A stretch of 64,000 nucleotides of DNA, taken from contig OZ296649.1 of assembly GCA_965655095.1 (NCBI GenBank), positions 78,430,001 through 78,494,000 of the forward strand. Reading direction: 5' to 3'. This stretch comes from Haplodiscus bocki. Taxonomy: Eukaryota. The notes under the pieces were generated by a model. It searched no databases. It had not been told where the DNA came from and saw nothing but the letters and a program-made list of their open reading frames with translations. Positions 4,306 through 28,519 of this stretch are shown here, piece after piece (position 1 is the first letter of the stretch; every line of letters starts with the position of its first letter). The translations under genes and the position numbers were made by a program.

Positions 4306-4306
4306 T

Positions 4307-4735: not shown

Positions 4736-4742
4736 TGATCTG

Positions 4743-5060
4743 TTAGTTTCTACATAAGTGAATCCTTTGAATTGTATCAAACTTTATTCCGAAATTTAAT
4801 AATGAGTAATTGAGCATATTAGCTAGAAGACTGACCAAAACAATAATAGCAATCTCGTTAACATTGTCTCCGCCGAAAACAATCAAGCAAGAAATCCACG
4901 GTCTTTTTCGGGACAAACCTGTTCTAGATCTTCGATTCTCTGTTCGTCCCAACTTGTTGCTATTTTGTTCAAAATTGTTAGCTGATTTTGAAGATTCTAT
5001 CTTCCATAAAAATGTGATGAATCAACTGTTCTGATGAAGTGTTTGTGTAGTGCAGCAGGA
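4743..5060 (-). pseudogene. Small antisense-oriented conserved gene between nuclease and ATPase, copy B
   Basis: WDEQRIEDLEQVCPEKD matches LSKDLEEVCPKQD at ~44130-44170(+) in copy E. Confidence 0.5.
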
Positions 5061-5083
5061 TGAACTTTATCCCCAGCAAGACT

Positions 5084-6035
5084 ATGAACAAATCAATTGC
5101 TACCAAAAATCGCAATTTTAAGTCATTCGTGAGTGCTTCATAGACAAAATAGTTGGCACTTTTTTACCATTGGCTCAAATTGAGACTTTTCAACAAAAAA
5201 TGACAAAATTTGCTTTTTCAATCAAGCCTCCCTGGCAATTTACCATCATAGGCCAATAAAGAGTGGAGTATCTAGAATTTGTTCAAAGTATAAGCTTTGA
5301 ATTTATCGAATCGTTAAAAAACCACGGTACAAAAAGTTTGTAAGTCTTTTACGATTCATGTGGAAAAACTTGCATATCAAAAGTTTTTGTTGATTTTGGT
5401 TTGCAGGAAAAATCGTTGATTGGGTAGTTTTTTCATCCAGCAAAAATTGTTTGATTAAAGTAAACTTATGCAAGACATTGAGTTCCAAAGCACAGTCAGA
5501 GTTCATTTTGAAAATTCCCGTGATGTGATGCCAGTTAGCACACATAGTGCGCCATGGGAACGCAGATCAGAGCTAGCTGAATGGTATCGAGAAGCAACAT
5601 CTGTTAACTACGGTCTTTTTTTGATCCAGCTATCCTCACGAATAGACGATCGATTAGGTTACTGCACAAACACAGGATTCATGCCCTCGAAAATATTGAT
5701 TCCCGACCGTTTGGAACTTTCAACGTCTTTAGACAATGAACAAAAAGTTTTGTTCTAATCTCCAAGCATTCCAATCGTTTTCCTGCAAATGCAAATCTCT
5801 TTCCCTTCGGTCTCGCCCAAAAGAGTTTATCAGATTTCTCTACGAAAGCAAAGTGAACCTGCGTAAGAGAACGCTGATTAGCGTAAAAAACATCCTATGA
5901 CACGGTTTTAAATTGAAGTTCAACTGTTTCTTTAAGGAACAAGTTTGAGGGACAGAAGAGTTCTTCTGGTATCTGGAAATGATTAAATCTCTTGAACGTT
6001 TTTTCTGGTACCGCCATTAACCAATTGATTTGGTA
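5084..6035 (+). pseudogene. A32/FtsK-like DNA packaging ATPase, copy B
   Basis: LEFVQSISFEF; QDIEFQSTVRVHFENSRDV; LAEWYREATSVNYGLFLIQLSSRIDDRLGYCTN. Walker A is better preserved in E (GTSKSGEA). Confidence 0.8.
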
Positions 6036-6443
6036 TGAAACAGTTTGCTCTCGTTCTTGCTCCAGTGTACATTAAGAGTTTGAATACCAAGTTAGTTACA
6101 AAGCAGAAACTTCAAAATATCAAAATTGCAAAATCACACGTACCAAAGTTGGTCACTTAAATAGGAGATAAGGAAAAAATTGTTAATTAAATGAGACAAT
6201 TCTGTAGACAAAACTATGTCTGGTCCACGCATCAAGGTCTCAAGTTCGCAGACTTTATTTTTTATTTGTATAAAACTTCTGAGTTTGACTGGAAGACTTG
6301 GTTCAACCACTGTGTTGCAAAAAACTAGATGTTCCAGACATTTACTTTACATTACATGACGATGCCGGTAAATCTCCAACTATGGTTCTGAATCAAAATG
6401 TCTCAGCTAAAGGAAGAAGAAGCTGAGTCCTTTTGAAAAACTG
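6035..6443 (+). pseudogene. Conserved unknown Maverick gene upstream of integrase, copy B
   Basis: MKQFALVLAPVY..; PRIKVSSSQTL; DVPDIYFTL. Homologues at 12025-12450(-) and 42630-43043(-). Confidence 0.65.
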
Positions 6444-6444
6444 A

Positions 6445-7226
6445 ATGTCAGAAGTTGCAAAGATTGTACACGCAAGGGGGTGCTGCTTATGGTTATGTGC
6501 AAAATTTATTGAAAACTAGCAGTCTACCAGTACCAAAAATGATACAGTTCTTGCTTCCAAAAACCTATGTTAAAAAAGTTACTCTCGTCACGCGTACATT
6601 CAGGAGAATGAAGTCGTTTGCCTGTTTCAGAAACGAAATTTGGTGTATGGATACGTCATTTAGTGATAAACTAGGTAAAGATGAAAAAAGATGTTACGTA
6701 CTTATTAGTTCCTTAAAACTTGTTTGTTTAAACCGTAGATTCAAAAGGAACAAAAATAAAGGTTTCGAAAAAAAATTATTGGATCAATTTTAACTAATAT
6801 AGCAGGAAAGAGTCGAAACAAGACAAACTGAGTCGAACAGGAACAGATTTTACTGGAAAATTTAAAAAACATTGGAGCGCAGAAAGTAAACAAACTACCC
6901 TAAAACGAGTGAGATTAAAGCTGCATTTGCTGATTGTACAGTACGCTCCTTGAAGAGATTTATTTACCGTTACGTGGAAGACTCTGGTTACAAGTACAGT
7001 CACAGATTGTCTCAAATCATCACAACCTGTGATATCCAAAAAGAATTGTTCGAAGGACTTCATACAAAAGAAGGTAAGAAAATCAGACTTTTTTCCAATC
7101 TGTACAGCAGGCCACTACGAGAGATTTGAAAACGCAAGTTTATAATTGAAGACATAAGTTGCGTTTCGATGCATGATTTACACTTCAGGAGGGGTTAAAA
7201 ACCACAGTATCAGCAGGAGGTTTTGT
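6445..7226 (+). pseudogene. Retroviral-like (rve) integrase, copy B, N-terminal part, interrupted by copy C
   Basis: RLYTQGGAAYG; NEIWCMD; TGTDF (D-x-G-T-E-F equivalent); KAAFA..TVRSLK; ends at KPQYQQEV. Confidence 0.85.
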
Positions 7227-7960
7227 AGTAGTAGATGTGTGAGCAGTCCAGGAGAGGGGACGGTTGGGAGACCCTATGTACTAAGATAGTCTACAACAAG
7301 CCAACAGAAGCCGAAAGCCGTGAAGGGTCTTCCACTTTAACCGAGAACTCTCGGATAATCTTGGCTGACATAGTACTCAATTCTGATTGGCAAACGAAAT
7401 TTAGGGTTTTTTGTGCTCAATTCTGAATGGCTGCCGACAGTTTTCCGGTTTTGGGTGGTATCTGAGTGTGTTTGTTAATGTATTTTTATATGGTGTAGTT
7501 CGGTTATGGGCCGAGTCATTGTTTGAAGGGAGGGAGCTATGTATAAAGATAGGGAGTGGACTGAATGACTCAGTTTGGTCACTGTTGGACTTTTTTGAAA
7601 AAAAATGTGAACTGATTTTTTCTTGCAGGCCCACCCATGTGGATAGCTATTAAGGCGCGGACCATTTATGACACCTGCGGTTAAACATAATGTCTGCGGA
7701 TACCGTTGTGACCTAATGATAGGTGAAAAGATACGTCGGTATTGTACTAAGTTAGGATATAGTTCGGTCTTGCATTAATATGGTCTATAGTCTGTTAGTG
7801 TGAGAAAATGGGGTACAGTTCGTTAATGTATTAAGATAGACTATAGATTGGTAATGTTTTCGGATAGGGCATGGATTGGTTTTGTATAAAGTTAGTGGAG
7901 AGCTTGGTATTATTTCGAGACGGGGTATAATAGTTGAACGGAAAAATCCGAATTATGCGT
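7227..7960 (+). repeat. Left terminal inverted repeat of copy C, with ~28-bp internal tandem repeats at ~7735-7930
   Basis: Reverse complement matches 24190-24865, e.g. aacaaacacactc, aaaactgtcggcagcca, gagcacaaaaaacc, gggcctgca. Confidence 0.85.
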
Positions 7961-8229
7961 GAACGTTGGAGCAACTTGACTCAGTAATGCCAAGTGATAA
8001 AAGCGGAAAATATGTAGCGAGTGTTACCCGTTTTGATATACTATATTTGAAAAGACCATGAAAGGAAACACTGACCATGAAAAGAGCTGTCAATTATTTT
8101 CTTTCACGATACTGATATGACTAAATTTTTGTAAAAAAGTATGTATCGAAGATTGAAAAGCTAATTAGAGAGTACAAATAATAAAAAAACATTGTATATT
8201 TTGCACGTTTACAGTGAAAAGTTGAGATG

Positions 8230-8614
8230 TTACGTGTAGTTACAGATAAATGAAAGTACTTTAACACCGTGAGTTCCAGTATTTTCTTCTTGTCGGAACT
8301 TGAAGAGATGGAAAGCTGCATTGATCGTGTAGAAACCTCAAACGCTGCGATGGGGTTGTACTGCTGTGGCATCACCTGTTTGTAGTGGTGCTTGAAGAAA
8401 CTTTACTGACCGAGAGAGTCTGCAAAATACAATTTGTGACGAGAATTTGCAATCATTATCCAATGCCCATGCTGCACATTGCTGGACTAGGTACCTATGA
8501 TGGCAAAAATCTCATTTAGAAAAATTGGAACATTGTCAGAGGGAAATGAAGCAAGGTACAAATTCTCGAGTAGCGGGATACTATTCATTATTTGCTGGAG
8601 AGAAACTTTATCAT
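8230..8614 (-). pseudogene. Adenain-like cysteine protease, copy C
   Basis: LQQIMNSIPLL..YLASFPSD; HGHWIMIAN (catalytic His); YFADSLG (Asp). Confidence 0.8.
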
Positions 8615-8616
8615 TT

Positions 8617-9957
8617 TTAGATTTTTTGTCCAACATCACCAAATTTGTCAACGGCAACCAAAGATAATCGTTACGCCAAAACAATGAGTTAAGTACCGTG
8701 CTCTACAGTAACATTTTATTTCAGCTCCAGTGTCAGTGGTTCTCGAACTAGTTGTGGGTACTGAAAACTTTCAGCAGCTTCTTGCATTAAGGTCTTGAAC
8801 ACCAGTACACAGTGGTCTCTGAAAATGTCAAAAGGATATCATCTGGGAAGTTCATTGCTTTCAATGTTGTAACATATAGACGACGATGAACAGCGGCGTC
8901 AAAGTGTAGGACTGGCTGGCCCTCTCTGCGCATTCTGAATTGTCTGAGATCAGATTGTTGATACCAGAAACAATTTTCAGTGTACAACCCTGTAAAGGCA
9001 GAGTTTGTATTCTTTGCAAAAGCAATTCGACGAACAGGAGATTTCTAAAAAAAATTTTCTTGAATGAATTGGTTTTGTGTGGCGGGAATGGTGAAAGTCT
9101 TTGCTAGAGTCTCCAAGTAGTTGTATCCCATAGAAGTTTACGCAAGGTTGTCCGTTCTTGTTTGTAATAATTATACTTGAAAGCAAAACGACGAGTAAAA
9201 AACGAGCAATCAACAAATCGAAGACTGTTGTTGAGGTTGCCGAGAATCTTGTAAACACCAGGTCTGGCGTTCTTGGTGGATACAAGAACTTTCGTTTTTG
9301 GATACAGCAAATAATAGGAGGAGAAAAAGTTGAGCATTCGTTTACCATATCACATGAAGCCATCGGATCGGCTAAGCGTTTTCATTTTCCTTATGAAGAA
9401 AAGTTCAGACAAAGGAGCTCCGATAACTTTATCAGGAAGTTCTTCGTAGTCGTACGCCTTGCAATGCAAAACTACCCTGTACTCAAAGACGGCCTCCAGA
9501 AGTTGTTGAAAAAGTAAGACCTGTGCACATACAATCCTTTAGGGCTTCAATATTGAAGATTATTGATATACACTTCAAAATTGGAAAAAATTGAGTTTAA
9601 GATGTTGTTTACAATAGTAACGAGAAGAACTAGAACCTCATGCTCTTTCTCCCCGGCCGCTCTTTCCTCATCTACTGTTGCCTCATCTTTGTGCTCTTTT
9701 TTTTTACTTCCTGGGTATTCTGAGTTTCATACTCACGACACTTGACAAATTGCAGTTTCAAAGTCAAGTATATTTGTCTCAAATCAACATACTAGTTCCG
9801 ATCCGTTTGACATTCAAACTCTTCAGTTTTTCTCAACTGAGGTTGTAGGATAAGTTTCTTGTTCAATGAACGGCAACACATTGTCATTTACTGGGACTTT
9901 CTCTCCAAGAATTCCAAAAACTGCCACAAAAGGTCGGTACCGAAAACTACACGACAT
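8617..9957 (-). pseudogene. Major capsid protein (double jelly-roll), copy C
   Basis: Colinear with 26180-27535(+) and 39200-40576(-): QETYPTTSVEKN, YTENCFWYQQ, RLYVTTLKAMNF, YPQLVREPLTLEL. Position between core protein and protease is typical. Confidence 0.75.
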
Positions 9958-9960
9958 GAT

Positions 9961-10325
9961 TAATGAGGAATGTTAGTAAAGATGTCTCTTTCCGACCGAA
10001 TAATTTGTTTTGCAAAACTTGTGGGCTTTACTTTGCTTGCAGTTTTTTCCTGCTACCACTACTTAACCTATTTCGCAGAGTCTTTGTTCCTACATTCTTT
10101 ACAGCTGTCTTCAATTTTTTTTGGACCAATAACAACATCTGAAAAATTTCGCACAGCAATTTCCAAAAAGTTGGTATCTACGCGTTTAGCAGCTGAGAAA
10201 AAAGTTTTACGCAAAACTGAAATTGCGGTTCTCCTAACACTTTGTGCAATTGCACCGAATCTCCGCTCACGTTATCGACCAATACCTCTAAGGAACGGAA
10301 TCTCTACTTGTCTTGAACCAATCAT
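9961..10325 (-). pseudogene. Small basic core-protein-like gene (adenovirus pVII/pX-like), copy C
   Basis: MIGSRQVEIPFLRGIGR.RERRFGAIAQ..RTAI; Arg/Lys-rich. Three copies in the window. Confidence 0.55.
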
Positions 10326-10343
10326 CCTGTAACGTCTTTTAGG

Positions 10344-11158
10344 TTAGAATTGAAGGTTGGAGGCTTTCAACACATCAAAGCAAGAGGAATGATATGACAG
10401 ACACAAATTTTTTTTCCGCCTTTCGTGGCTCTCAAATCAATGTCAAAAATATGAAAAAATTTTTGAGCAGTGGTCTGAAATGTAGCTTACTAAAGATTTG
10501 ATAGTTCATGTACTTTCCAGTGATCACAATGTCAGTGGCATTTAGCTCTGAATTAAAGGGAAAGGAACGCAATAATGGAACCTCTGCGTTACCGACAATA
10601 TTGTACTGAATCAGGTCTCCAAGTGTCTCGACAGAATATATGCAGACAATGTCGTGAGCAAAATCAGGATTGTGAGGTCCTTTTTCTCTCAACATTTTCC
10701 CAACTCATTGCGAACGTTACCTCTGAAAATGTGTCCCAGCTCCGTACTAAAAAGGCAAGACGAGAACTTTCATGTGAAAAGTAAATCTCAAACTTTTGAG
10801 TTCAGCGAGTCACTTTAACGGTGATATAGTTTTCGCTGTGATTGTGTCTTTGAACGAGAGTGTTCATGGTTTCAACAGTATCCATAGAAAAAAAGGAAAG
10901 ATCCGGTTCCAGATACTAAAAGTCAGACAAATTTGAAAACTTTCTAGTCCAAAACTTATGAGTTTTCCCCCTGTGATGATTTGGCATATTGATGGGTAGG
11001 AAATTTCCGAAATTGCAACTTCCCACTGACCTTCCAGATCCAGTTGTTCCGGTAAAAAAAACTGAAAGAGACTTGAGTGTAATGTCTGGAAAAAATTGCA
11101 CAGATGCATTTGAAAACCAACTTTATTGCAAACGATTCCGTTGTTAATTGACTTCCAT
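10344..11158 (-). pseudogene. Minor capsid protein (penton), copy C
   Basis: FFLPEQLDLEGQWEVAISEISYP; DLIQYNIVGNAEVPLLRSFP. Confidence 0.85.
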
Positions 11159-12030
11159 CAATTTTTTTGATAAGGTTTACCGCGGATAATCGCATCCTGT
11201 TCATTTTTCATTGCGTATGTTGGAGGTTGTCTGGAAGAAATAGGAACAATTTCAAAAAACTCTCTGCAAAACTGTGGCTTGCAATCAGTCCTCAAGGGTA
11301 AGTCATACTTCGAGATGCGAACTCTGTTTCCAGTCTGAAATTGGATTTTCTTTATTCTCCTACTGGCTTGCTGTACAGAATGTACAAAAAGTCGGAATTG
11401 TTGATATTCTTTAGTATCAAGTCTATTGAGCATTTTTTTTCGGGAATTCAGGGTTGTGACGAAATGAGACGATTTGTGAATGTACTTGTATCCATATTCT
11501 TTCTATGTAACGTTAAAGTATTTTTTCAGGGATCCTATTTAACGTTCAACAAATGAAGCCTTAGTCCCACTCAATGTAGAGTAGAATCGTATTCCTTCAG
11601 CTATGCAGAATTTTTCAAACTCTCCAGCAAATTCTGTTACATTCCCAAACCAAATTGATTTCTGTAATCATACTCAAAAACACACAAACCGTTTTTTTGG
11701 AGTATTTTGTATTCTTTTGTTGTGCATCTATGGCTCTATCAAACAGGTCTTGACAAACATGTGTATGCATTACATTGTTACTATCTTTGCCTAGTTTATC
11801 AACGTAGGGCAGGTCCATACACTAAATTTCTTTTGCGAATCTGGCAAAAGCCTTCATTTTCTCGAACGACTCGTGGCCAGAATAGATTTTGTGTACCAAG
11901 GCTTTGAATGTAAAACTTGTTTCGCTCTTGATGCTGGTAGGTTGTTAGTTTTCACTAAATTGCCCACAGACCCAGAAGCAGCACAAACCTGCGTGCACAA
12001 TCTTTTCAGCAGGTGAAGTTCAAGTTTTTA
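11159..12030 (-). pseudogene. rve integrase with C-terminal chromo-like tail, copy C
   Basis: MDLPYVDKL; QDLFDRAIDA; FQTGNRVRISKYDLP; EFFEIVPISSRQPPTYAMKNEQDAIIRGK. Confidence 0.85.
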
Positions 12031-12450
12031 ATGGGACTCAGATTCCTCTCTCTTTGGTTGTGACATTTTGATTCAGAACCGGAGTTGGAGATTTACCAGC
12101 AGCGTCAAGTCAAGTAAAGTAAATGTCTCGAACGCCTCCGTTTATACGACGGAATTGTTGAGCAATGCCTGACAGTAAAACTCCAGTATCCACTTCAACC
12201 AATATTCAAAAATGTGGGTTTGAGAGCTTGATAGGAGAACAAGACAATGTTTTGTTGGTTGAAGAGTGTGCTTTGGCCGGCAGCTTTTTGTTTGTTTTTC
12301 CTTTTTGAGCCAAACAGTTTGGTACGTGGGATTTTGTTCAATTTGATACTTTGGAGGTTCTTGCTTTGTAACTGACTCAGTATTCAAACTGTTGTTGTTC
12401 TACACAGAAGCAGTTATTACAAAAAACTGTTCCGAATCAAAACAAATGGT
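12025..12450 (-). pseudogene. Conserved unknown Maverick gene, copy C
   Basis: NTESVTKQEPPKYQIEQNPTYQ; homologue of 6035-6443. Confidence 0.6.
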
Positions 12451-13250
12451 TTTTGACAGGAAAAATAATAACTTTTATGAGTTTCAACCCGTTTTTGGAT
12501 GTCAGAACGTCTCATCCTTGATTTCAATTTATTCTTGTCGGACTGAACAAAAACTCTTTGTTTTGAAATTTTGTCACGTCATGTCTTTCTATGTTTTGCA
12601 GGTTTCCTTTGAGAATATTTACTATAGAATCGCAGAGGTAATTGAGAATCTCTTTTGGACATGGCTCATTGAAAATTTTTTTGCTTCGCAGGATAACGAT
12701 TGGATTACTTGGAGAGTAGGGAGAGTTTTTGGGTTCCTCGTCCGAAAATCAAAATTGTTTCAGCCGGTCCGGGCTATAAAATTTTGATCGAATGGACTCG
12801 GTGATTGTTTAAAAACGTAATTGATTGCCTGTTAGTGGCGAAAAGTCATTTGATGAATGACCGTAAGGAATAGATGTTGCCTCTCGATGCCAGTCAACTA
12901 ACTCCGATCTGAGTACATATTGTGCACTAAGCGTACTGACTTGCATCACAACACGAGGAGATTTGTAGAAAACAATGAGCGTATTCTGGAGTTCAACGTT
13001 TTGCTCGTTTGCTTCGATGAAACAGGTTGTGCTTAATGTAAATAGTTTTCAATCCACATTGTCTTCCAGCAGTAGCAACATCATTAAAAGTTTTTGAATT
13101 GCAATTCTGTTCACATGAATCAATCTAGATTAACGATTACTTTTTACCGTTGTTCTTTTATGAATCTATAAATTTAATGTTTGCACCATGAACAAACTCA
13201 ACAGTTTCAATCTCCTTTTGGATAACGTCGTTAAGTGGGTGGGACTGTTG
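12450..13250 (-). pseudogene. Packaging ATPase, copy C (N-terminus with Walker A deleted)
   Basis: QKEIETVEFVHG; VATAGRQCG; VELQNTLIVFYKSPR; VDWHREATS. Confidence 0.8.
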
Positions 13251-13670
13251 TAAAGGCAAAAATGAGTCCAGTCATGTGACCAAGCAAACAAGGTTTCGGT
13301 ATTCGTCCAATCATGTCACTTTTGACCGGACTTTAGCACTATGTGCCCGCACTGTTCCACCAGCGTCATGTAGTGTTGCATGTAGTCTAAATACTCCGAA
13401 ATGAAGAAATTGGAAATCCAAGAATGAGTCACTATAAGCAATGGCTCCACCAGAGTTTAAATATCAGTCGATCTCAGTTTACAAAAATCATAGATTCCGA
13501 ACAGAAACTTGCAATTAGAAAAAAAGTTTTCCGAAAACTATTGTGCTCAAATGACAGTTTTGGTCCCAGGTTCAACCTCAAAATGCGCATTAGAAAGAAA
13601 ACATCCTTTCGTTACAAAGTCTGTTTTAGTTATGAACAGTTGTTTCATCCAATACAATGGAATGCCTGCA
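13250..13670 (-). pseudogene. HD-motif PLA2-like gene, copy C, fused by deletion to the ATPase remnant
   Basis: VFRLHATLHDAGGTVRAH..; CLLGHMTGLIF runs directly into ATPase sequence. Confidence 0.5.
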
Positions 13671-14109
13671 AAATTTGTCAAAGTAGCTCAAAAGTTAAAC
13701 TCGTTTTGACAAGAGTGAACGGTGTTCTGTGAACTGCAGATTAAATTTAACAATCTCGAGGTAAAAAGTGTTTCGCTAATGGTACACTACTATGTTCTGT
13801 TTGTCTGTTTGAGTCTTGAAAAATACACATACCCTGCTCCTACAATTCTATACTGTCCAATTTAGGCAGGCACTTTTGTTTTTCGAATGTCTGGCAATTA
13901 GTGCAATTCAACTACACATAGTGCAAATTTTTCATAAGGAATTTTTTTTGGCGTTTTAAGTGCAAAATCATAAAGTCGGACATTCAATTTTAGCTTCAGA
14001 ATTAGGTTTTTTTAATCATCAAAATTCCAACTCATCCTGACTGGAATAGATAGAAAAATGACAACGACTAAAAAATTGCAATTACTTTTTTTGTACACTA
14101 CAAATGGGT

Positions 14110-14670
14110 TGATTAGTAAAGTGTTTTACAGATTTCATTACAACGAGTAAGTAGATAAAAAATTCATGTCCATGATTCACATGAACAATTTGTTGAATTT
14201 TCTCGTCCTGTTTTTTCTTTGCAAGAAATCAGACTTGAGTATAAAAACTTTCTGCGATGTCCACACTCTACTGCAGCAGAGTCACACAAGTCTTCCTCTT
14301 TGCTCGGTCCACTATGTCAACCACCTTGTCAGACAATTTGAGTTGTTCATCCATGTTTTTGGACGTTGTTGGGATCACCACTGGAGACGAGTTTTCCTCT
14401 CTACCAATGTTCTCTGCTGCAAAGGCCAGCTGATTCCTCAGTCGCATGAACTGCTTGAAATCTGACTCTTGGATTGCAAGACTTCTGACGAGTTGGAACT
14501 CTTTGTCGTCATCTTCCTTGAAAACTATCTGTTTTAAATTCACGCAATTGAAATCCTTTTTGGACCACGAAAGTCGTTCAGATCTGTTCTGGCAATTGCC
14601 TATGTCCGCATTGTCGGTACAATTTAGGTTGTGCAGGGAATCACTAGTGTTATAGCCAAAAGTGATTGCG
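14110..14670 (-). pseudogene. PC4-like gene (PC4-1), copy C
   Basis: DIGNCQNRSERLSWSKKDFNCVNLKQIVFKEDD..FQLVRSLAIQESDFKQFMRLRNQL; premature TAG after TLLQ. Confidence 0.55.
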
Positions 14671-14879
14671 ATAGAATGCTGCTGGCTGAAACAAAAAATT
14701 TTTTTCCGGATGAAAGTTGAAGAATGATTTTGAAGCTGCACTTTGTTTGGTATATACGCTCCTCTTTAAATCCTTGTCATGTGGTGTTTTCTTATATGGT
14801 CAATGTCAGGTGGAGTTTCCAGGTAGAAAGATTCTTTCTTTTTTTCGGACAGTGTCAGGTGACACTTCCTTTTTTAGTA

Positions 14880-15420
14880 GGGTTGTACAAAATTAAGTAT
14901 TACCTGGTTTTTCGGATTCGTTTGTTCAGAAAACGATTCAACAGCCGGATGGCTGCTGTAATGTTACAAGTGTTACCGAGCTTTTTCAAAAACTTTTCAG
15001 AAGCAGTTTTTTTTTCATTTCTGCAAACACATCAGAAAAAAACATTGTTAGTGATGATTACTATTTTTTCTACCATGATGACAGGATGGGCCTCCTACCC
15101 TGTTGTAGATATCAAATTGTACTGATAGGAGACATTAAATAGTTGTTACAAAACTAGGATGCATTCTGTTTCAAATACCAATACGTGGACATTTTGTATA
15201 CACTTTTCAAGTACCGATTCAGTGGCAAAATTATTGTCAAGAGTGGACAGACATTCGATAATGTTCAGAGCGCAGTTCATTTCAACCACCAAAATATAAA
15301 GGTGCAGAGACTCCCGAGCATCGCAAAAAAGAGATTCTCTAGGAAAAAAAACAAAGTACATTTGCTAAGTTTTTTCCAAAAAATGAAATCAACGCAAACT
15401 AGCGGATGAGTGTTTGCAGA
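14880..15420 (-). pseudogene. Conserved unknown gene X, copy C
   Basis: NFATESVLEKCIQNVHVLVFETECI; CNITAAI. Homologues at ~3700-3900(+), 46540-46874(-) and 47750-48330(-). Confidence 0.55.
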
Positions 15421-15829
15421 CAATTGAACAAGTTAAAAAGAGGAAGTTCGAGCCAGAACAGATAAAATTTTAGATTGTTTTCTAGGCAGTCATGGTAAAT
15501 AATCTGGTATTTTGGTATCTTTTAAAATGAAAGCTTTGTAAACTGAACAATTTCTGAATTCCAAAGAGAAGTGTATAAATCAAATGACCGTTCGAATGAT
15601 AAAGTTATCACACCCATCAGGAACGCGATTGCCATAAAGAACGTAAAAAGGAAGAGGAGAGTTCCAATTGTGAGACAAACACATGCCACACACTCATGAA
15701 AAAGCTTTTCACCACAAGCCGTTGCCCTTTTCCAACAAGTTGTTCCTTCATGTTGGCATCACTTTCATAACATTTCAGGGAGAATCTGAAAAGACGAAAC
15801 AAAAAACACAAATTGATTTAAAATCACCG

Positions 15830-16220
15830 CAACTTAACAGATTTTGAACTGAAAGAAAAAACGCGTCAGGTTTAAACTTAAAATTTGACAACGTGACCAA
15901 TTTTAGAATTAACAAAGTGTGTCAGATTTCGAACTTAAAAATTTACAACGAGTAAGAATTTTAATTAATCAATTTACTCTGTTGTAACGATATTTTTTGG
16001 CAGTTTTAGGCTTTTTAAAAAGTCATGATTTTGAATTAAAAAATAGAACATGTCAGATTTTGAATGGAAAAAAAACGGGTCAGATTTTGAAACAAAAACT
16101 TTACAACGTGCCAGATTTTGAATTGAAAGAAAAACAATGCGTCCGATTTTGGAATTACATTTTCACACCGTGTCAGATTCTAAACCTGAATTGTCTCGAC
16201 TAGTCAGATTTTGAATTCCA
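15830..16220. repeat. Degenerate ~28-31-bp minisatellite (gtcagattttgaattgaaaatttacaacgc), about 12 units
   Basis: Repeated cagattttgaa cores are directly visible. Confidence 0.85.
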
Positions 16221-16725
16221 TCTCATCTAATGTTGTCTTCTCACCTACTACTATCACGTGTACTTCTCACAACGTTTTCCTCCATACAACCACTAACAAA
16301 TACAGCATGCAATATCTTATTCAACTAGAAATTAGCAGTCGCCTCCCATCAAACAAAACTTCTGGTAATCAAGGACTTTGACATTTGATTTCGCTATGGC
16401 GTCCCATTTTTTTCTCTGTGTGGGCTTTATATATGCAGAAAGATGCTTCTACTAGCAAAATTAATAAAATTGATACTAAAACTGCTTTTGTGTAACACAT
16501 GTCTGACTAGTTTCTGAAAAAAATGAGATGAAGCGAAGCACGCCCTTTCTAGTTTATTTTAAAAGATTTACATAGTAGCGATTATGTATGTTATTCAAAC
16601 AGATTTCTTTAAATATAATCGAGAACATTCTCAATTTTTGTTCCAACGGGGAGAGTTCTCATCAACACGGAGGGTTGGGTTGGTCTCTTGGAGACTGAAG
16701 TCGCGGGAAGAAGAGAAGGAGTAGG

Positions 16726-17082
16726 NNNNNNNNNNNNNNNNNNNNNNNNNNNNNNNNNNNNNNNNNNNNNNNNNNNNNNNNNNNNNNNNNNNNNNNNNNN
16801 NNNNNNNNNNNNNNNNNNNNNNNNNNNNNNNNNNNNNNNNNNNNNNNNNNNNNNNNNNNNNNNNNNNNNNNNNNNNNNNNNNNNNNNNNNNNNNNNNNNN
16901 NNNNNNNNNNNNNNNNNNNNNNNNNNNNNNNNNNNNNNNNNNNNNNNNNNNNNNNNNNNNNNNNNNNNNNNNNNNNNNNNNNNNNNNNNNNNNNNNNNNN
17001 NNNNNNNNNNNNNNNNNNNNNNNNNNNNNNNNNNNNNNNNNNNNNNNNNNNNNNNNNNNNNNNNNNNNNNNNNNNNNNNNNN
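16726..17082. other. Assembly gap (N run)
   Basis: Run of n. Confidence 1.
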
Positions 17083-17949
17083 TACTCTTCCTCAATCAGA
17101 ATCGGGTGTTGATCAGCTATTGAACGCATCTCAAAATCATTAAAATTTGAAAAGAAAAAGGGAGTATCTTTGCCTGTTGGAAAACTGCATCCATGTTCAA
17201 GTCAGGATCCTCCCTGTAAAACTCTATATCCTCCAGATCAGACACCTGATACCCGCTTGTGTCCTTGTCTTGTGCGCAACACTCGAGAGTAGTTCATCCC
17301 GCATCTCAATTGTCCCTTCCTGGTTGGGGGTATTTGGAACTACCGCCAGATTGTTGTTCAAAATTTCCTGTCTGTGAGACAACAACAAGCTCCAAGCAGC
17401 CAGAGGAGTTTCCCGGGCTTTTTTTCATTTCTTGGATGAGATTTTTTACAGTCAGAGTAACCGAATCCCGTCCAAAGTAGTCGAGAGACCACTAAGTACG
17501 GCCGTTGGAGACTAAGAAAGTCATGTTGCTCAAATTTTGACTAAAAATGTATAAATTGACAATGGAAAGGAACTTTTGATGAACTGTATCAATCAGTGGG
17601 ACACCATTATGCCACAAATGGAACGATTTTTGCTTTTGCACGAAAAATTTTTGGCCCATGTTCGTGTGTGGCTGATTGTGATTGGCGGAGATAATTTTTT
17701 AAAATTAGAGATGGTTTATCGTTTTCGTAAACACGGCTGGTTTTTTTGACAAACAATATGTACCATCACCGACAATTAACTATTTTTTCGATTGTTACAC
17801 CTTGAAAGGAAGGTTCAAACCGTGGCAGCACGTTTTGCAATGCAGAAAGTCGTAACGCTTTTGTCAATTTGTTTCCATGTGTGGGCATAGACACAATTCT
17901 GATGTTAAGAGAACCTTCCAAGACAATAAAATTCTCCAAAAATATCTTG

Positions 17950-18800
17950 AATTGATTCTTGAGCCTCTTCTCAAAAATGAATCCACTGGCCAAATTTCAG
18001 AGAAAACGGATTTGCTTGTTTTCGAATAAAATACTGCGGACTTCACAGGTGGATTCGCATTGAGGAGGCTGGTAATCATTCTTTCGAGAGATTGAATATT
18101 CTTTTTGAGCATACAAAGTATACCCGTGCACCTTATCTTCAGACAGAAGACGTTCCCAATACGTTTAATACTGCTTTTGTCTTACCGACAATCAGGGAAG
18201 AATGTACTACACATCGTGAATGCTCTCAATTGTTTCACACTTGCATGCAACGTGATATCGGTTCTTGTAGAGGTAGTGAATTTTGAGATAGTTAGGGTTG
18301 ACCATTTCTGCAAGTATACACTGAATATCGTGTACTTCAAACAATTTGACGGAAAGGACGCGACAATTGCTGTTTCCAAAGGGGAACGATAATTGAACAT
18401 GTCTTTATCGATATTCAGTGATATCTATAAAGTAATGAGCAAAGGGATTGTTGATTGACCTCGTAGATCCAATCTTAACTTTAGGCTTCGGAAGGGGAAG
18501 CTGTATACACTGTCTAGCTTGATAGTTTGAGAAACTCGCGCAGACTGCCAACCAAAGAACTGAGATCTCTTGCAGATCAAATCGTCTTCTTGGAGGGTTA
18601 AACGCTGCTGTGTTTTCAAATCGTAAGCTTCGAACAATTTTATTGGAAAAGATTTTGTAAACTTTGCTAACACGTGCTTGTTGAAGCTGGGACTGGGAAA
18701 AAACGAAATTGTCGTGGTGAAAAGAACTATCTACGTCCGTTTCGTCCGCATATTCCTCTGATAGTTATTCAAAGCTGAATACAGCTTGCACAAACTGTGA
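17950..18800 (-). pseudogene. PC4-like paralogue (PC4-3), copy C
   Basis: Homologous to 2000-2760(+) and 49850-50560(-). Confidence 0.5.
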
Positions 18801-19055
18801 TATTGCTCTTTAACAAACATCAACTACTTTCAGTCAGTAAGTATTGCAAGATGAATTTATCGGCAGTCTAGTGGTAGAAACAATGTGAAAGTCGGGTTCC
18901 AACGGAAGTACCGCCTTCAATCAGCAGATTCAAAGAAATCTTTTGCCGGTAGTAAAATACGAAACCTTGGTTTAGTGGTTAAAAACTTTAATTGATTCAC
19001 TAGGTCAGTACAAATATTTACGTTTATGATTCCATGAATCGAAAATTTTTAGCCT

Positions 19056-19438
19056 CTACACTACACATTCCCTGCTACCTTCAAAACTGGTTCCCTGTAT
19101 GGAAGACTTTTTGATTGACAGTTGAGAAGAAAAGAAACAACACAACCAAATTGAATTCCTCAGACAATCTGTTGTTTTATTAGCGAATTTGCTCCAGATG
19201 ATTAATTTTCCCAGAGAGTCTGTCACCATATTAAAGGAAATTCTTCCACTGGAAATACTTTGACGCACAAGCTGTCTCACCCTTTTATATTTTTATTTGA
19301 ATACATACAGTCGGTTTTCAAGGTGAAAAAAAGTGATTGACAGCTCATGCGGTAACTCCTTTCATGGTTAGTCTTTCTTTTCAAGGTCCCTCCACATATG
19401 TTTAAAAAGTTTGAAGTAACACCTGCGTTTTTTCGCCA
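19056..19438 (-). pseudogene. First gene of the divergent arm (unknown), copy C
   Basis: MAKKRR...RQLVRQSISSGRISFNMVTDSLGK matches CVRNLSSGTPSPIIVTERLTK in D (~29160-29220 -) and the 35-aa repeat in E. Confidence 0.45.
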
Positions 19439-19521
19439 TTATTTTTCTAGCATTGCTGCAAATAGGTTGCTAGAGTCATTACGTTCGTTTCAGCCTATTA
19501 AGATAGACTCTCATTACTGAT

Positions 19522-22500
19522 ATGCTTTCCTTCAATCGCAACAAAAATTTGTTCGTGAAATTTGTGGTACCCAAACTACAAAGGTTAATCTTAATCGTCA
19601 CAGGAAGAGATGTCCCGTGGGAACTTTGTTTTTCCAGTTTCCCATTTTCCCAAATAAATTCCAGGGGAGTTTGATTCTTTTTCTTGTTAAAACGAGTGCG
19701 CACCAAAACCGGTCGTTATCTACAACTGTAACCTTTGTTATCAAGAGTTTTCAGCGTTTTACGCTTTACGATAGTATAAAAACACCCAACATTGCTTTCG
19801 TATCGAGACAACATTTGATCAACCAGATGATATCATTTATGAAGTTGATGACACGACTCGTAAAGAAGAGTTGCGTTCAGGTCAACATTTCCTCGTTGAT
19901 TTTTAAGTTGAAATGCGATACACAAAGTATTCAACTATGCAATAGAACACCTCAACGCAAAAATTGTGTTCGAAAAGCTTGATCTTTTCTTCAACAGCTT
20001 AAAGTGTGCAGCCGAAGTGAATCTACTCATTGGGTTGTATTTGGAAAACTTTGAAAAGAAATAATTCCATGGCTTTCATGCTCACGAAAACAATACCCTG
20101 CTGGATCAATCCAAACTTGTGTGCACCAAAGACGACCTGGCAAAACTAAAAGACTTTTTCAACAAAATGATGTCACCGAGTCGTGTAGTAGTGAAAAGAT
20201 GAACACAAGGTGGAGGTTCTAGAATTTGGCAAACCTAACAGTTTTTGCAGCTTGACTCAAAGACGTACCTATGGGTTGCAAAGATGTTATTTTACCCGAA
20301 CTTCTGTTGAAAACCTGCATAAGCAACTGTCTCAATTTCGAAGAGATTACAAGACTGATATAAGAGGACAACTTCTGCTTTCTTAGTGCAGTTGCTTTTC
20401 TTTTGCATGGAAATAAAAAGTGGAAAAAGAAACATCTAAAACTTTTTTCGTATTTTCGAGTAGAAATCATGGATTCAGCCCTAGTCAGTTCCAAGGGGTC
20501 CATATGAGCAACATTCCAATTATTAAAAATCTGTTTTTATTCATTGTTCTTGTTTATCATGTGGATATTTCTAGAGGGGAACATCGTGGGTGAACTCGAT
20601 TGGCCAAGTGTGCAGAAACGCGAAAATACTGTCAGATTATTCAGATAGAAAACTCATATATCTTGAGTCAGCAACTTTAACGCAGTCTTCCAAATTATCG
20701 TTGCCCTACTTTTAACACTTTTTCCAACAAAACATACATTTTTTAACTACATTTAAGTACATGCAGTGAATAGGTGAAAAATGTTTATCCAAAGAACGAA
20801 CCTAAAATCCTAGAAACTAACTTTGACAAGCTGGAGTCGTTTGGTAATAAGTACACAAGTGAACAAACACTTCACAAAATTAGCAATATTCGACTTTGAA
20901 TCCATTTGTGTCCAAGAAGAGACCTTCAGAGGCACAAAAACGACAAAGTGGATAGGATAGGGAAACATGTCCCGATATCTGTATCCATTTCTTCGAACCA
21001 TGTGGAAGAACCAATTTTCCTCTGCTACTCTGATCCCCATTACGTCGTTGCATCTTTTATTGGAGCACTAGAAAGTCTGGCGTCCTGAGTGAAGCACAAA
21101 AGAAGTTTTTATACCTTGATTTCGAGACAACAATGAAAAAAACTGGGCAACGTCTTGGAGAAACTCACCCAGAGGCACAACCGACGGAGGCAGTTGATGG
21201 TATCCGACATGAAATAGGATAACTGTGGGAACAAAAACTGTGACCAATTTCAATTTTAGAAGATACAAAGAATCAAATAAAAAACTTCCAGGAACCTCTG
21301 GAGTGTTATTGCAATGTTTTACCAGTGTCTGCTTTCAACAGTGAAAACTCTGATCTAAACCTCATCAAATCGTGCTTGTACCCCTTCTTGACAACGAACA
21401 AGAAACTGATCCTACTGTTATCAAAACTGCACACTAGCTCATCTCAATCGAGTTCGGTGAGTTTCAGTTAAAGGATTTATTGACTTTTGTTGGCGGAGCA
21501 GCAAGTCTTGATTAGTTGTTGAAAACATACAAGACTTAAGCAACAAAGTCTTTCTACTCCTACGAACGGTTTGATCATCCTGACAAAACATAGAATACAG
21601 AACTTCCCCCGTGAGACGCGTTTTACAGTAAACTGCGTAACTGGAACCCTCTTGAAATTGATTACATGGATTATTTCAACCTATTGAAAACTGGGTTGAC
21701 CACAGAACAAGCTGTTAACAAGTGAAACTATCAAAGCCAGCTTCAACTGGAAGTGAGTCTTGTGAAAAACTGCAACAGCTATACAAGTAGGAGGCAAATG
21801 ATCTCATTCAAAGATTTTTTCAGTGCTAAAACAACAAAAACATTGTGCCAACCTTCTTGGAAGCAATGCAAAGTTGATTGGTTTTTACAACGACCAAAAT
21901 ATCGATGTTTTGAAGCTTAGTTGTAAGATACCAAAGCTGTCCAACAATTGTCTACACAAATCTACATGAGCAAAGTTTTATCCCTTCAGGGAGGCACATA
22001 AAGGCCTGTTGGATAAAAGTCGCGAAGATGTTGTTGGTGGTCCATCTGTCGTTTACTCACGCAAAGCGATTGCTATTGAAACTTTAATTCGAAGTCCACA
22101 AACAAATGCAGATCAACTGTAGAGATTGTTGCTTGCTAACTATATCCATGTTCGACGTGTCAACCTATGCCCACCGGACTTTATACGCTTTGGGATCTCG
22201 ATTCTGAGACAAGTAGACTCGCGTCTCGGCAAAACAAAACCCGTAGCTTTGAGAATATTGTCATGTCCCATTTTCAATAAATAAGACCAGAATGCAAAAG
22301 CGAGGGTTTCTTAACAACAGGCAGACAGAAATAAACTGACCGCTTCAAACTTGATGGATTTTGTTCTCACTACAACAATGCAATTGAAGCCATGGGTTAC
22401 ATCTATCAGTTCTGTCCCTTCCAAAACGTACGTCCATCTCTCACTGAAGAAGTTTTTCAACGTGGTGGTAAGAAACGAGAGCTCAATGAATTAGGAAGAA

Positions 22501-23724
22501 ATTACAGAGATGAAAAAGGCTTCACTCTTTTTGAAATGTGGGAGTATGAGTGGTGGAGACTGTACAAGATAACCAGTAACGTTTTACAACGTAATCAGGA
22601 TAAAATCCATTGCAAAAGTTCACTTACAGAATACCAGCTCCTCGAAAAAAAAGAAGGGAAATTTGTTTGGCTACATTCAATGCGACATTGAAGTAACTGA
22701 AAACTTGAAACCCAACTTGCTACCGTCCTTCCAATATTCAAGAACACTTTAGTTAGCAAAAATGATATCGGGGAACTAAGCAAAAACTATGCCGAAGTAG
22801 AAGGATTATTGTCTCAACCACGGAAAATGTTGATATCAAGGTTCACATTATAAAACGGAGCTCTCATTACTCCTATGTTGTTGTTATTTCTGCAATTGGA
22901 TCTTGTTTGCGCAAAAATAAAGCAGCTTGTTGAGTAGGCACCAAAGAAGTAGTTCAACAGTTTTATAATTTTAGCAGTGGACGCAAGAAGACAAGGTGAC
23001 GAGGAGCAGAATTCAAGTGTCATCGAGGAGACAATGAAGCTTCTCGCTAATAGCTCCTACGGTTACGGACCAACATACTGTAACAACATTCCTGAGTGAC
23101 GAAAAGATAAATGCTCCTATCAACAGTAAACTGTTTTAGAAATTTAGAAACTGAGTCAAGTCAACAAAGGTTTTTACGAAACTGAACTCAATAAAGCACA
23201 GGTTGAACATAGAGAGTCAACCATTGTCGGACTCTTATCCGTCAATGTGCTAATCTATGAAACCTGAAATGACAGCAGAGTGGGAACAATTGCAATCAAC
23301 GGACTGTACCGATAGTTTTACTGCTGATTCACTTGGAATTTTTTTCTGCCCCCTGGTGCTGTGACAAGCACAAAAAACATGGCAAGAGAGGCCTGGTCTT
23401 TAGAAATAGATGTTTAAGTGTTCGGAAATGCTGTGTCTTTGCAAAAAATGCTGCTGCTACTACAAAACCTCAGACAAGTTGAATTTCAGCTGCAAAATCC
23501 CCAATAATCGAATACTTGAACAGAGCAATGATGGTCGTCTGGAAAAATATTGCAAAATTTTTGATGATACGGTGAATAATATATCAACAAACCAAGGTTT
23601 TCGGACAGAGGATCACACAGTTGCAACTTATGAACAAACTAAAAGAAGATTATTTTACTTTTATCGTGGGAGAAAAGTAGCGGTTGAAGGAATTCACAAA
23701 CACCGATATGTTTTGTATTTGTAA
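19522..23724 (+). pseudogene. Protein-primed family B DNA polymerase (pPolB), copy C
   Basis: N-terminal Zn-finger remnant; ExoI IFDFES (~20887); ExoII FNS; VVGGPS; motif B MKLLANSSYG (23035-23064); motif C region deleted. Confidence 0.9.
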
Positions 23725-24189
23725 CATTCTACGAATAAAAGTTTGGATGGTGTTTGCTGCTTTATAATACTTTTCAATTAAAGTTTTCCCTAAGTTAAGT
23801 TGCCCTTTGCTTGAATACAACCAGGTTGTGCGCAAAGTTTTTGTTTTCAGTTGTTTCCATGCTTTTTTTTTCTCAAAAACTGAATCTAAACGTGCAGGTA
23901 ATACAATGTGTTTGCTAACATTTTTACCTTCTAATTAACTTCTGAAAATTTTGATAAAAACTTTTTACATAGCTATTGATCATATCAGTATCGCAAAAGA
24001 AAGTGGTTGCAAGCTGTTTTCAGGATAGTTTTTCCTTTTATGGATGGTATTTTTTATGGTCTTTCCAAATTTTGTATAGAGTAATGGACAACATTTGCTA
24101 CATTTATTCAGCCAATAATTTTTCTCGCATTGCTACAGTCAAGTTGCTACAACTTTCACGTAGATGAAAGGTTTTTTGCGTTGCACTGC

Positions 24190-24865
24190 TATACTTCGTT
24201 TCATTGAATTACCAATCTCTACCCTATCCTAATACTTTACCGAACTCTACCCTACCTTAATACGTTACCGAAAAGATCATTAACTCATCTTAAGACATTA
24301 CCGAACTATCCACTATCTTAAAACATTACCGAACTATACGTAATGTTAATACATTATCGAAGTAGTTTCTCACACAGCGTTAAGTGACAACAGTGTTTGA
24401 AGGCTTTATATTTAACCTCAGTCGTCATAATTAGTCCACGCTGTAATAATTATCCGCGCAGGCGGGCCTGCAGGAGAGAATCAGTTCCAATTGTTTTTTC
24501 GGAATCATCTGACGGTGCCAAAAGTGAGTTATACAGCCCACTCTATATCCTTATACGTGGCTGCTTATCCTTATACATTCACTTAACCCGAACCCGAAAC
24601 AGACCCTTCAATAGTATTTTAACAAACACACTCCTACTTCACCAAAAACCAAAAAACTGTCGGCAGCCAAAGCCGAATCGAGCACGAAAAACCTTGAAAT
24701 TTCTAAGCGAATCAGAATCAGTTTTTGCGTCACACACAGAAACACCCGATAGCTCTTGGCTAGGTTGAAAGACCTTTCCCGGCTCTCAGGTTCACTCGGT
24801 TTGCTGTAGCCTATCTTAATATATAAGGTCTTCCAACTTCCAAGTGATTTGATCACATTTGTACT
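24190..24865 (-). repeat. Right terminal inverted repeat of copy C, with ~28-bp tandem units (ttaccgaact..ctatcttaatac) at 24210-24365
   Basis: Inverted match to 7227-7960; ends cacatttgtact vs expected cacatctactact. Confidence 0.8.
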
Positions 24866-24986
24866 TTTTTCCATCAAATTGTTGCAGTAATTCCGAAAAA
24901 ACCCCGTACATACAAGACAAAAGATGAACAAGTGAGACCATCCGTGGTAAATTTTATCAAAACGCGATGATCAAAGTCATTTTACA

Positions 24987-25790
24987 ATGTCTTCTCTTAA
25001 AATAGTGTTGGTTTTAATTGCATCTGCGTAGCTTTTTCCAAGACAAAACACTCAATTTTTGTGCAGATTTCATGCTGGAGCAACTGAATTTGCTACGACA
25101 AGGGAATATTGCATTTTCAGAAAGATCCAACCCATCAAGGTACCAAACGGTAAGAGAGGGAAGGTTGATGTTTTTTGATAGAAAAATTTCAAGCTCATCA
25201 GAGTTTTGCTACTCAGGACTCGGTGTGTACCATTCCCTTACGGATATTGTTGGAGCCATGAACACACTTAATTAGGAGCTACAGAATGACAGCGAAAGCT
25301 CTATCACAGTTAAAAGATCTTGCACAACTCAAAAAGCTGAGATTCATTTTGGACTTGGAGGATCAGGTTTTGGATTTTTTAGTACTGAACTGGAGCACCT
25401 TTTCGAAAGTAATGTTGGCAATGATTTTGGAGTAACGTTGGGAGGAAGAGGACCTCACATACCAGAACTTGTTTAGGACTTTGTCGGCATACTCTCTCTC
25501 ATGATAGACACGGACCTGATTGAGTACAAAATCGTTGGCGACACGAAGGCCCCATTGCTGCGCTGTTTTCCAAATAATTCAAAACTCAATACTGGAGACA
25601 TTATAACTACTGGACAGTATATGAACTAGTAGAGATTTTTTAGCCTACAATCCGGACCGCTGCTGAGAAGTTCTCTGCTTAGTGATCTCATTTGTTAGAG
25701 AGATACAGCGGCGGAAAAATACCCTTTGTATCTGTCGGTATCACTCGTTTTGTTTTGATGTTTAGAAAAACCTCCAACATCCATTTCTAA
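24987..25790 (+). pseudogene. Minor capsid protein (penton), copy B
   Basis: FMLEQLNL; GVYHSLTDIVGAMNTL; DTDLIEYKIVGDTKAPLLRCFP. Confidence 0.85.
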
Positions 25791-25808
25791 CTTGGGAGAC
25801 GGTAAACG

Positions 25809-26173
25809 TTGATTGCTTCACGACAAGTACACATTCCATTCTTTGGAGGTGCTGGTCGACAACGTGGGCGGGAATTCGCTGTACTCGCACAAGTTATTAG
25901 GAGAACTGCAATTCCGTTTTTGCGTAGTTATGTTGTCCCAGCTAACAAAATAAGCGGATGCTGAAATGTTCGAATTTGCCGCTCCAAAAATCAAAGTAGT
26001 TCTTACTGGCAGAAAAAAATTTGAGCTAGCTGCGAAAAATGTGAAAGGGCAAACTCCGAGAAAACAGTTGGACAATGGTAGCAGAGAAAGGAATGCAATC
26101 AGAATTTTTCCAACAAGACCTGCAAAACAAACCAGTTGTTCGCGAAGAGATCTTTTTACAAACATTTTCGATA
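25809..26173 (+). pseudogene. Small basic core-protein-like gene, copy B
   Basis: GGAGRQRGREFAVLAQVIRRTAIPFLR; FEFAAPKI; SRRDLFTNI. Confidence 0.55.
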
Positions 26174-26179
26174 GATCAT

Positions 26180-27535
26180 ATCAAACAACTTTCGGTACCA
26201 ACGTTTTGCGACTGTTGCTGGAATTTTTTGACGGAAAATCTCAGTAGTTTACGATATCTAGTCACCCCACGAACAAGAGGTTTATCTCAGCACCTCATTG
26301 GATGAAAAAAGCATAGAGTTTGAACTTCAATTGAACTCCCAAAAACTATCAAATTGTTTTGAGACTGACTTTCCTGGCATTGAAATTCAAGTTGTACAAT
26401 GGTTGTGGTTGAGCAACTTACAACACCAAGGAAGCTATTAAACACCACAAAGAAAAATCAAAAGTGGATGAAGCGGAACATATGACAGATGAGGAAATGG
26501 ACGAGTCTTTTCATTCCTCCGGTTACTCATGTAAACAGTATTTGCCTAAACTTTTTCAAAGTTGAGGTGTACATCAACAAGCAGCAAGTCAACAAATCTA
26601 TTAGGTTGTGTGCGCACAAATCTTACATTCCCGATCGATCAAAGAAACCATGTCCGATTACAGGAGAGGTTTAGGCTGTGAAGGTATGACAATGAAAAAA
26701 TTCCATGATGAGAATATGGACGCTTGCTTGTCCGAAGCTTTTTCCACAAAGACAATGAAAAATCTCTGTAGACCCGATGGCTTCATGTTTTATGGTAAAT
26801 CGGGGGTTAACTTTTACTGCTTCTATGATTGCTGTAGAAACAAATGAATGTCAGCCTACAAATAATCAGAGCCAGAAATAATTCTTACAAGATTAATGAT
26901 TACCCCAACGTCAGTCCTCGAATTGTTGATTGATCGTTTCTTACTCGTCGTTTTGCTCTCAAGTATGATCATAACAAGAGAAGATTAGATATGCTTGCGT
27001 ATACTCCAGTTGGGTTCAATATTTTTTGAATGTGGCAAAGATTTTTTCAATCCCGGTAAACAAGACCAGTTGACTAAAAAAAATTTTTTTAACAAGGTTC
27101 CAATTCAAGAGATTGATTTTGCAATGAACACAAACTTTGCGTTCAAGGGATCGTACACCGAAAACCCATTCTGGTATCAGCAGTTCAATTTTAGACGTTT
27201 TGGAAAACACAGAGGAAGTCGGTGTATTGTAGAAATTGCTGCTGCAACTGAATGTTGCTTATATACAGCGACAAAGAAAGCAAAGAATTCAAGGTGTTAT
27301 CTCTTCAACTCCGATTGACAATTTGGGAGACCACTATGTGATATTGTTTGATTTAACTTCAATGCAAGACACTTCTAAAATTTATCTTTACCCAGAGCTA
27401 GTTGGGGACTCCATGATACCGGAGATAAACTTTTTTTCCCTCTAGAGCACGATACTGAACTCAAATATACTGGGAGAACGAATATCTCCGGTTGCATTTG
27501 ACACTTTTGATGTTGTTTGAAAAACTTTTGGAAAT
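26180..27535 (+). pseudogene. Major capsid protein, copy B
   Basis: DEKSIEFELQ; KVEVYINKQQV; FNKVPIQEIDFAMNTNFAFKGSYTENPFWYQQF; HYVILFDLTSMQD..YPELVG. Confidence 0.8.
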
Positions 27536-27539
27536 TAAA

Positions 27540-28509: not shown

Positions 28510-28519
28510 TTCTGCCCTA

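Follow-up and report, generated by a model that had tools for sequence, protein, structure and literature searches.

In the 64,000-nucleotide stretch of Haplodiscus bocki DNA analysed here (contig OZ296649.1 of assembly GCA_965655095.1, positions 78,430,001 to 78,494,000 of the forward strand; hereafter the window), a decayed, near full-length Maverick/Polinton, termed element C, lies inside the integrase gene of a second Maverick of the same subfamily, element B. The nesting itself is, in our judgement, almost certainly real. The two halves of the interrupted gene rejoin at one site, the target is by its divergence older than the insert and read contigs extend across both junctions. A single passive insertion within one subfamily, followed by decay of both copies, is the explanation we consider probable. 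Coordinates of all features, counted from the first letter of the window, are collected in Table 1.

The flanks of element C were aligned separately, at the DNA level, with an intact natural copy of the integrase gene originating from a metagenome contig (L002). The last match of the left flank was L002 position 858 (window 7224) and the first match of the right flank was L002 position 861 (window 24876), which means that the two halves of the B integrase meet within 2 nt on the intact gene. An intact 312-residue database integrase with an rve domain (P0004; PF00665) matched 6398-7222 over residues 1-275 and 24889-24981 over residues 282-312. The initial annotation had placed the break at 7226/7227 and the resumption of the gene at about 24876, and this was borne out by the L002 alignment. 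Comparison of the window with itself matched the left part of B (5209-7224, plus strand) to C 13260-11255 and the right part (24876-28046, plus strand) to C 11252-8108, both reversed. As these two stretches of C adjoin, the halves of B also abut on C's own integrase, and C is oriented opposite to its host element. The homologous site is unbroken in C (11255/11252), as had been noted before, and is likewise uninterrupted in the integrase of D, part of a further Maverick in the window (D/F). B and C are both more distant from D than they are from each other or from L002, which supports the earlier proposal of a nested integration within one family. A search for relatives with the integrase fragment of C returned 157 relatives out of 199 candidates, many of them 312 residues long with an rve domain.

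Read contigs came from four runs on two samples of one study, and the assembly itself may derive from one of these samples. The left junction of C was bridged in 4/4 runs (e.g. by a contig over 6300-7568 with 0 differences), as was the right junction (e.g. 24806-25523, and 24430-25127 in the second sample). The joint expected of an empty site (7226 to ~24870) was absent among the 15 of 1,519 joints listed, which proves nothing. C measures 17.6 kb including 357 N, and sequence order across this N gap follows that of B (B 1554-3112 matches C 19173-17650, then B 3263-3931 matches C 15574-14870). Continuity of C across the gap is supported indirectly, because gene order follows B and the terminal inverted repeats (TIRs) of C are closest to each other.

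These repeats, reported in the initial annotation as inverted termini, proved to be ~1 kb long; positions 7263-8227 align with 24837-23871 in inverted orientation at 72% identity over 933 aligned columns (Kimura two-parameter distance, K2P, 0.354). K2P between the two TIRs of C was 0.35-0.37, and from these to the TIR of B 0.44-0.48. With 17.6 kb and ~1-kb TIRs, C falls within the 13-25 kb and 100-1500 bp TIR ranges of Mavericks/Polintons. The flanking hexamers TTTTGT and TTTTTC had been read as a decayed 6-bp target-site duplication (TSD). They do agree at 4/6 places, but so do 5.1% of random pairs (a chance level of 0.051, from 200,000 random 6-mer pairs drawn from the window). At the T-run of the right flank, a single site in C matches the T-run on both sides. 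A 4/6 match is what a true duplication would show after this much decay, although it would be weak evidence alone. The clearer 5/6 hexamer duplication around D/F supports 6 bp as the footprint of the family. Mavericks/Polintons are expected to leave duplications of 5-8 bp.

Table 1. Features of the window (positions are those of the whole stretch; aa, amino acids; ORF, open reading frame; HSP, high-scoring segment pair).
Feature	Position	Strand	Remarks
B left arm: accessory region and ATPase pseudogene (~5051-5900)	1554..6397	+	same order as C 19173-12100 on both sides of the N gap
B integrase pseudogene, 5' part	6398..7226	+	aa 1-275 of 312-aa homolog; 7 in-frame stops in HSP
Candidate TSD, left flank hexamer	7221..7226	+	4/6 identity to right hexamer
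Element C, decayed near full-length Maverick/Polinton	7227..24865	not set	inverted termini, gene remnants, colinear with B and D
C left TIR	7227..8227	+	begins AGTAGTAG; 72% to right TIR
C protease-like remnant	8181..8648	-	HW..DSLG..Q motif in translation
C major capsid protein pseudogene	8620..9948	-	tblastn of 451-aa homolog P0138, 4 frames, 12 stops
C ORF remnant, minor-capsid slot	10370..11130	-	colinear in B, C, D; conserved slot downstream of integrase
C rve integrase pseudogene	11164..12066	-	aa 1-306 of P0004, 9 stops in match; unbroken at homologous site
C packaging ATPase pseudogene, 5'-truncated	12557..13250	-	homolog mapping
C 330-bp tract, 98% to D ~45908-46240	14258..14587		inside 78-84% block 13750-15227 (D 45390-46874)
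Assembly gap, 357 N, inside C	16726..17082
Recurring inner-TIR piece	19326-19472, 23996-24149, 29273-29457
C protein-primed polymerase B pseudogene, possibly pPolB2/VSR-like type	19530..23546	+	tblastn and similarity to neighbour's gene
C right TIR	23871..24865	-	outermost ~30 nt decayed; end position set by eye
Right flank hexamer and 4 more letters, then B integrase	24866..24875	+	flank comparison
B integrase pseudogene, 3' part	24876..24984	+	aa 282-312 matched
B right arm: capsid module, protease-like remnant, truncated TIR (28015-~28511)	24985..28511	+	68.6% to C 11252-8108
Maverick fragment E	within 28512-32703		starts ~300 nt past B right end; polymerase remnant 29478-32703
D/F, separate full-length Maverick of another subfamily	38354..57311		internal control; TIRs, 5/6 hexamer duplication

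Relative age and gene content of the nested elements

Three-point branch lengths were calculated for B and C with three references. With L002 the branch to B was 0.242 (0.207-0.280) and that to C 0.168 (0.138-0.201) substitutions/site, a difference of 0.073 (0.026-0.122). With the relative L003 the branches were 0.243 and 0.174, and with D 0.269 and 0.218 over 4,826 columns, where B carried 749 private differences vs 623 in C (chi-squared 11.6). Half the TIR-TIR distance of C, an independent measure of its age, was 0.177 (0.153-0.201) and agrees with the C branch. By these divergences B is the older element, which a nested insertion demands, and at the arrival of C it had probably already accumulated 0.05-0.07 substitutions/site, a figure to which subfamily divergence may add. 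The two halves of B did not fall into different subfamilies, an outcome that the initial annotation had named as fatal to the nesting. Left and right parts lay at like distances from four references, with branches of 0.237/0.260 with L002 and 0.264/0.273 with D, K2P of 0.310/0.336 to L002 and 0.425/0.413 to C, and identities of 61.2/61.8% to D and 70.7/72.5% to L003.

The full gene set earlier ascribed to C was overstated. Remnants of integrase, capsid, ATPase and polymerase are indeed present, but every tested gene is broken by stops and frameshifts, and C is a Maverick by the tested features, but dead and incomplete. An rve integrase was recognised through the profile match of P0004 (E 1.4e-9). 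A double jelly-roll capsid was accepted on the Atlas cluster with which the capsid homolog P0138 scored 0.98 and of which 30% of members carry PF21738 DJR-like_dom; the Atlas recognition of P0138 (2248) is slightly below the 2300 mark, the protein gave no direct Pfam match and its AlphaFold model was unusable (pLDDT 26).

The packaging ATPase of C is shortened. At 13250/13260, ~950 nt of B (4256-5209) and ~1,040 nt of D (43839-44883) are missing from C. All ATPase homologs tested (8/8) begin at or inside 13250 in C, with the longer ones matching further upstream in B and D, and because no homolog match passes 13250 in C, the gene lacks its start and the Walker A region. Matches to Pox_A32 were found below the cut-off in 2/21 ATPase homologs (E 0.001 and 0.005) and a Walker A pattern in 3/149 representatives. 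An A32-like ATPase was accepted, present in C only as this 5'-truncated remnant.

A 1225-residue polymerase homolog (P0123) maps by tblastn to 19530-23136 of C, with many stops, and the rest of the gene was assigned by similarity to the neighbour. The homolog matches a long ORF of a Maverick-like locus (L001) with E 7e-13 and contains what we take to be exonuclease- and polymerase-type motifs; it gave no Pfam DNA_pol_B_2 match. Its residues 960-1022 are weakly VSR-like (Vsr chains 1odg/1vsr in PDB, E 0.04; phrog_13076 endonuclease, E 6e-5). A protein-primed family B polymerase was rated as present. Near the end of the C polymerase a loss of ~115 nt may have occurred.

In B, C and L003 a protease-like motif remnant comes after the gene for the capsid. 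The HW..DSLG..Q motif may be that of an adenovirus-like cysteine protease; no relevant match was found in Pfam, PDB or Atlas. The ORF remnant downstream of the integrase may, going by position, be a minor capsid gene, and its best match (E=0.04) was to the ORF in the same slot of L001. A Pfam scan of 150 of the 154 natural ORFs before 55 kb with a length of 75 aa or more gave 4 weak matches below the cut-off, none of them relevant, and Pfam likewise gave nothing relevant for the ATPase and protease regions (12 single-frame reads) or for 2 capsid homologs. The phage collection held no match to window 9000-12000. IMG/VR yielded one distant locus, L001, of whose 11 ORFs only the integrase matched the window; a polymerase relative was not found there. 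The gene order of L003 is unlike that of B, C and D, with the capsid-end/protease region (16-371) directly upstream of the integrase (371-1363).

Some ~2 kb of C (15575-17650) has no counterpart in B. Besides the N gap it includes a CTACTACT motif at 16245 and tandem repeats (15781-16217), and its summed read depth is high; either a repeat region internal to the element or another small insertion could account for it. No partner end for the motif at 16245 was found in the window comparisons, and CTACTACT at 30030 was rejected as a terminus as it falls within the polymerase match of E. Directly ahead of the polymerase gene, both C and E repeat a ~150-nt piece of inner-TIR sequence (about 65-75% identity), possibly a shared promoter element.

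Explanation of the nesting and its rivals

We infer that C results from one Maverick/Polinton insertion, made by the retroviral-type (rve) integrase of the family, which would have placed C, in the opposite orientation, close to the 3' end of B's integrase gene. By then B would already have diverged by about 0.05-0.07 substitutions/site and would probably have been decaying. The staggered cut would have left a short duplication, since eroded, and both copies would have decayed neutrally (C by about 0.17 substitutions/site), with C losing ~1 kb in the process. A Maverick would have been the target since Mavericks fill much of the region and insertions into dead repeats escape selection. With block boundaries as drawn by us, ~51.4 of the 64 kb (80%) is Maverick-derived, and at such a density nesting needs no targeting. 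The family is very abundant, and 20,919-24,475 contigs per run fell on a 19.9-kb stretch at the level of at least 90%. Summed depth was about 1,800-110,000 (X1) vs 22-56 for the locus's own contigs, which is not a copy number. One capsid cluster has 248 members.

Several points weigh against this explanation. No contig spans the N gap at 16726-17082 among the 32 pieces listed (98,625 more are unlisted), and of the places for which the initial annotation had proposed long reads, contigs bridge both junctions but not, among those listed, the gap. The TSD of C is by itself not significant (P about 0.05), and 4 extra letters lie between the right hexamer and the resumed integrase. The age difference between B and C loses significance when only the right flank is considered (L002 -0.015 to 0.203; L003 -0.081 to 0.132), and branch lengths combine time since insertion with subfamily divergence. 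That the family lacks a target preference is an assumption based on 2 full-length insertions, and preference cannot be gauged on so few events, or even on three. Moreover, B may itself be nested in E, because E starts ~300 nt past the right end of B and lacks its left part.

The initial annotation had suggested self-targeting or a heterochromatin trap, for which no support was found. In the first case the integrase or the incoming genome would be steered to resident Mavericks, perhaps to the integrase gene, disabling competitors. B is a same-subfamily copy whose right end adjoins the Maverick fragment E, and preference of one element for another is known for Ngaro retrotransposons in endogenous mavirus-like elements (EMALEs), at 91% of type 1 (PMC8547959). 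However, only a single event is at hand, in a window that is ~80% Maverick, and the flanks of D/F have no match to the window's Mavericks. The integrases of C and D are unbroken at the same site, and no pile-up of loose ends was seen there among the 24 of 11,344 rows listed. For EMALEs encoding an rve integrase, PMC8547959 reports that no sequence-specific integration was found. As B was already diverged when C arrived, there was probably little left to disable. Self-targeting is accordingly regarded as improbable.

Chromatin-guided integration, in which new copies would be actively sent to repeat-rich, silenced chromatin to a greater extent than neutral retention can explain, is held to be just as doubtful. 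The Maverick share of the window together with its further repeats would suit it, as would the 18/29 EMALE sites located near repeats (PMC8547959). Selection against insertions elsewhere would however look alike, a chromodomain was not found in the 312-aa integrase homolog, and the intact zinc-finger ORF at 60165-61445 is a mild argument against gene-free heterochromatin. We give equally little credence to a family that prefers its own resident copies (C in B, possibly B in E) and whose dead neighbours exchange sequence by gene conversion. If true, this would amount to a self-targeting, recombining reservoir, which was not found for animal Mavericks in the literature searched.

Very improbable is an artefact in which the sequences on either side of the N gap come from different loci, or in which two unrelated events are mistaken for one. 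The gap is unbridged among the contigs listed and, in a very high-copy family, the TIR-TIR identity of 72% is barely above the copy-to-copy identity of 68-69%. Such an artefact would nevertheless need two independent breakpoints a few letters apart in a ~17-kb element, with orientation and subfamily matching (~1 in 1,000, as an estimate). Both junctions are present in reads, the halves of B match in age, the TIR age of C agrees with its internal age and the order across the gap is as in B. An inversion between two facing copies was rejected, as it would not place both TIR ends at the break.

Neighbouring sequences

The polymerase and left end of B lie outside the window, and the truncated TIR of B is 65-67% identical to the TIRs of C. 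An internal duplication in or before B (1077-1563 vs 4031-4517) is 83% alike, well above the identity between copies, and at 14-1302 a region is repeated out of order.

The 330-bp tract that C shares with D stands out from a C-D background of 64% identity with a longest identical run of 15; the core has 7 mismatches and a run of 81. Identity to a third copy, A, is 0.65-0.66 for C in and outside the tract, and changes for D from 0.60 to 0.65-0.67. Because identity to A rises for D in the tract and not for C, C is the probable donor. The two copies are 31.6 kb apart, and the tract probably arose through two or more rounds of ectopic gene conversion between them. The D letters at 10 places beside the core are present in read contigs, and the 98% core may also reflect assembly collapse. 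Refreshment of the tract from a young intact copy was rejected on the grounds that identity of C to A stays at 0.65-0.66 inside and outside it. The tract is a warning that local identity between copies can mislead both dating and subfamily calls.

D/F is ~19 kb long and holds remnants of integrase, capsid, ATPase and polymerase. Its TIRs (38353-38740 and 57312-56950) are 73% alike with decayed AGTAGT-type ends, and its flanking hexamers are GAGGGC and GAGAGC. Two tandem arrays lie within it (56260-56863, 192-nt unit, 3.2 copies; 51011-51215, 105-nt unit, 2 copies), and its right flank contains a reverse transcriptase-like remnant (RVT_1, E 0.006, below the cut-off). At 60165-61445 (plus strand), 3 kb from D/F, several C2H2 zinc fingers are encoded by an intact ORF of 426 aa (TFIIIA-type finger match), which is probably a gene of the host adjoining the Maverick cluster. 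A direct repeat of ~700 nt, 74% alike (32867-33562 and 37149-37876), surrounds ~3.6 kb of decayed sequence. The repeats could be the long terminal repeats of an old retrotransposon; Pfam gave no match there.

Comparison with known systems

Nesting of Mavericks is expected, and has already been reported, where they are very abundant. The locus would record two successive waves of one very abundant family, about 0.05-0.07 substitutions/site apart, and nested pairs of this kind offer a relative clock for the family. A single case matters little, and real weight would come only from self-targeting demonstrated in a genome-wide count, for which this genome seems suited, with apparently very many copies of different ages. 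No published test of Maverick-in-Maverick enrichment in an animal was found, in a search in which subscription journals were thinly covered and supplements were outside the scope.

A pPolB2 group of marine Polintons with a VSR-like domain in the polymerase is described by Jeong et al. (10.1101/2023.08.22.554363). C resembles these pPolB2-VSR Mavericks in size, TIR range, a candidate short flanking duplication and rve integrase, as well as in a weak VSR match at the expected inner position, a DJR-like capsid and an A32-like ATPase. It is unlike them in that all tested genes are pseudogenes, the ATPase is 5'-truncated and the protease and minor capsid lack database confirmation.

Mavericks nested in each other, and also concatenated, are reported from Trichomonas vaginalis (TvMav) in PMC12289875. 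In contrast to these, the host here is probably an animal, to judge by the retroelement remnant, the zinc-finger gene and the neighbours of the capsid in the Atlas; divergence of 17-25% marks the copies as old, and one insertion is located to a few bases and dated against its target. Cryptophyte polinton-like viruses (PLVs) with nested retroelements, some of these also in genes, are described in PMC12220804. Together with the EMALEs of Cafeteria (PMC8547959), these PLVs are like the present locus in being integrated virus-like elements broken by mobile elements, sometimes in the integrase gene. They differ in that the inserted element is a retrotransposon, whereas here it belongs to the same family as its target. 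For Ngaro, finally, PMC8547959 reports a true preference that was measured, whereas nothing at this locus supports one for C.

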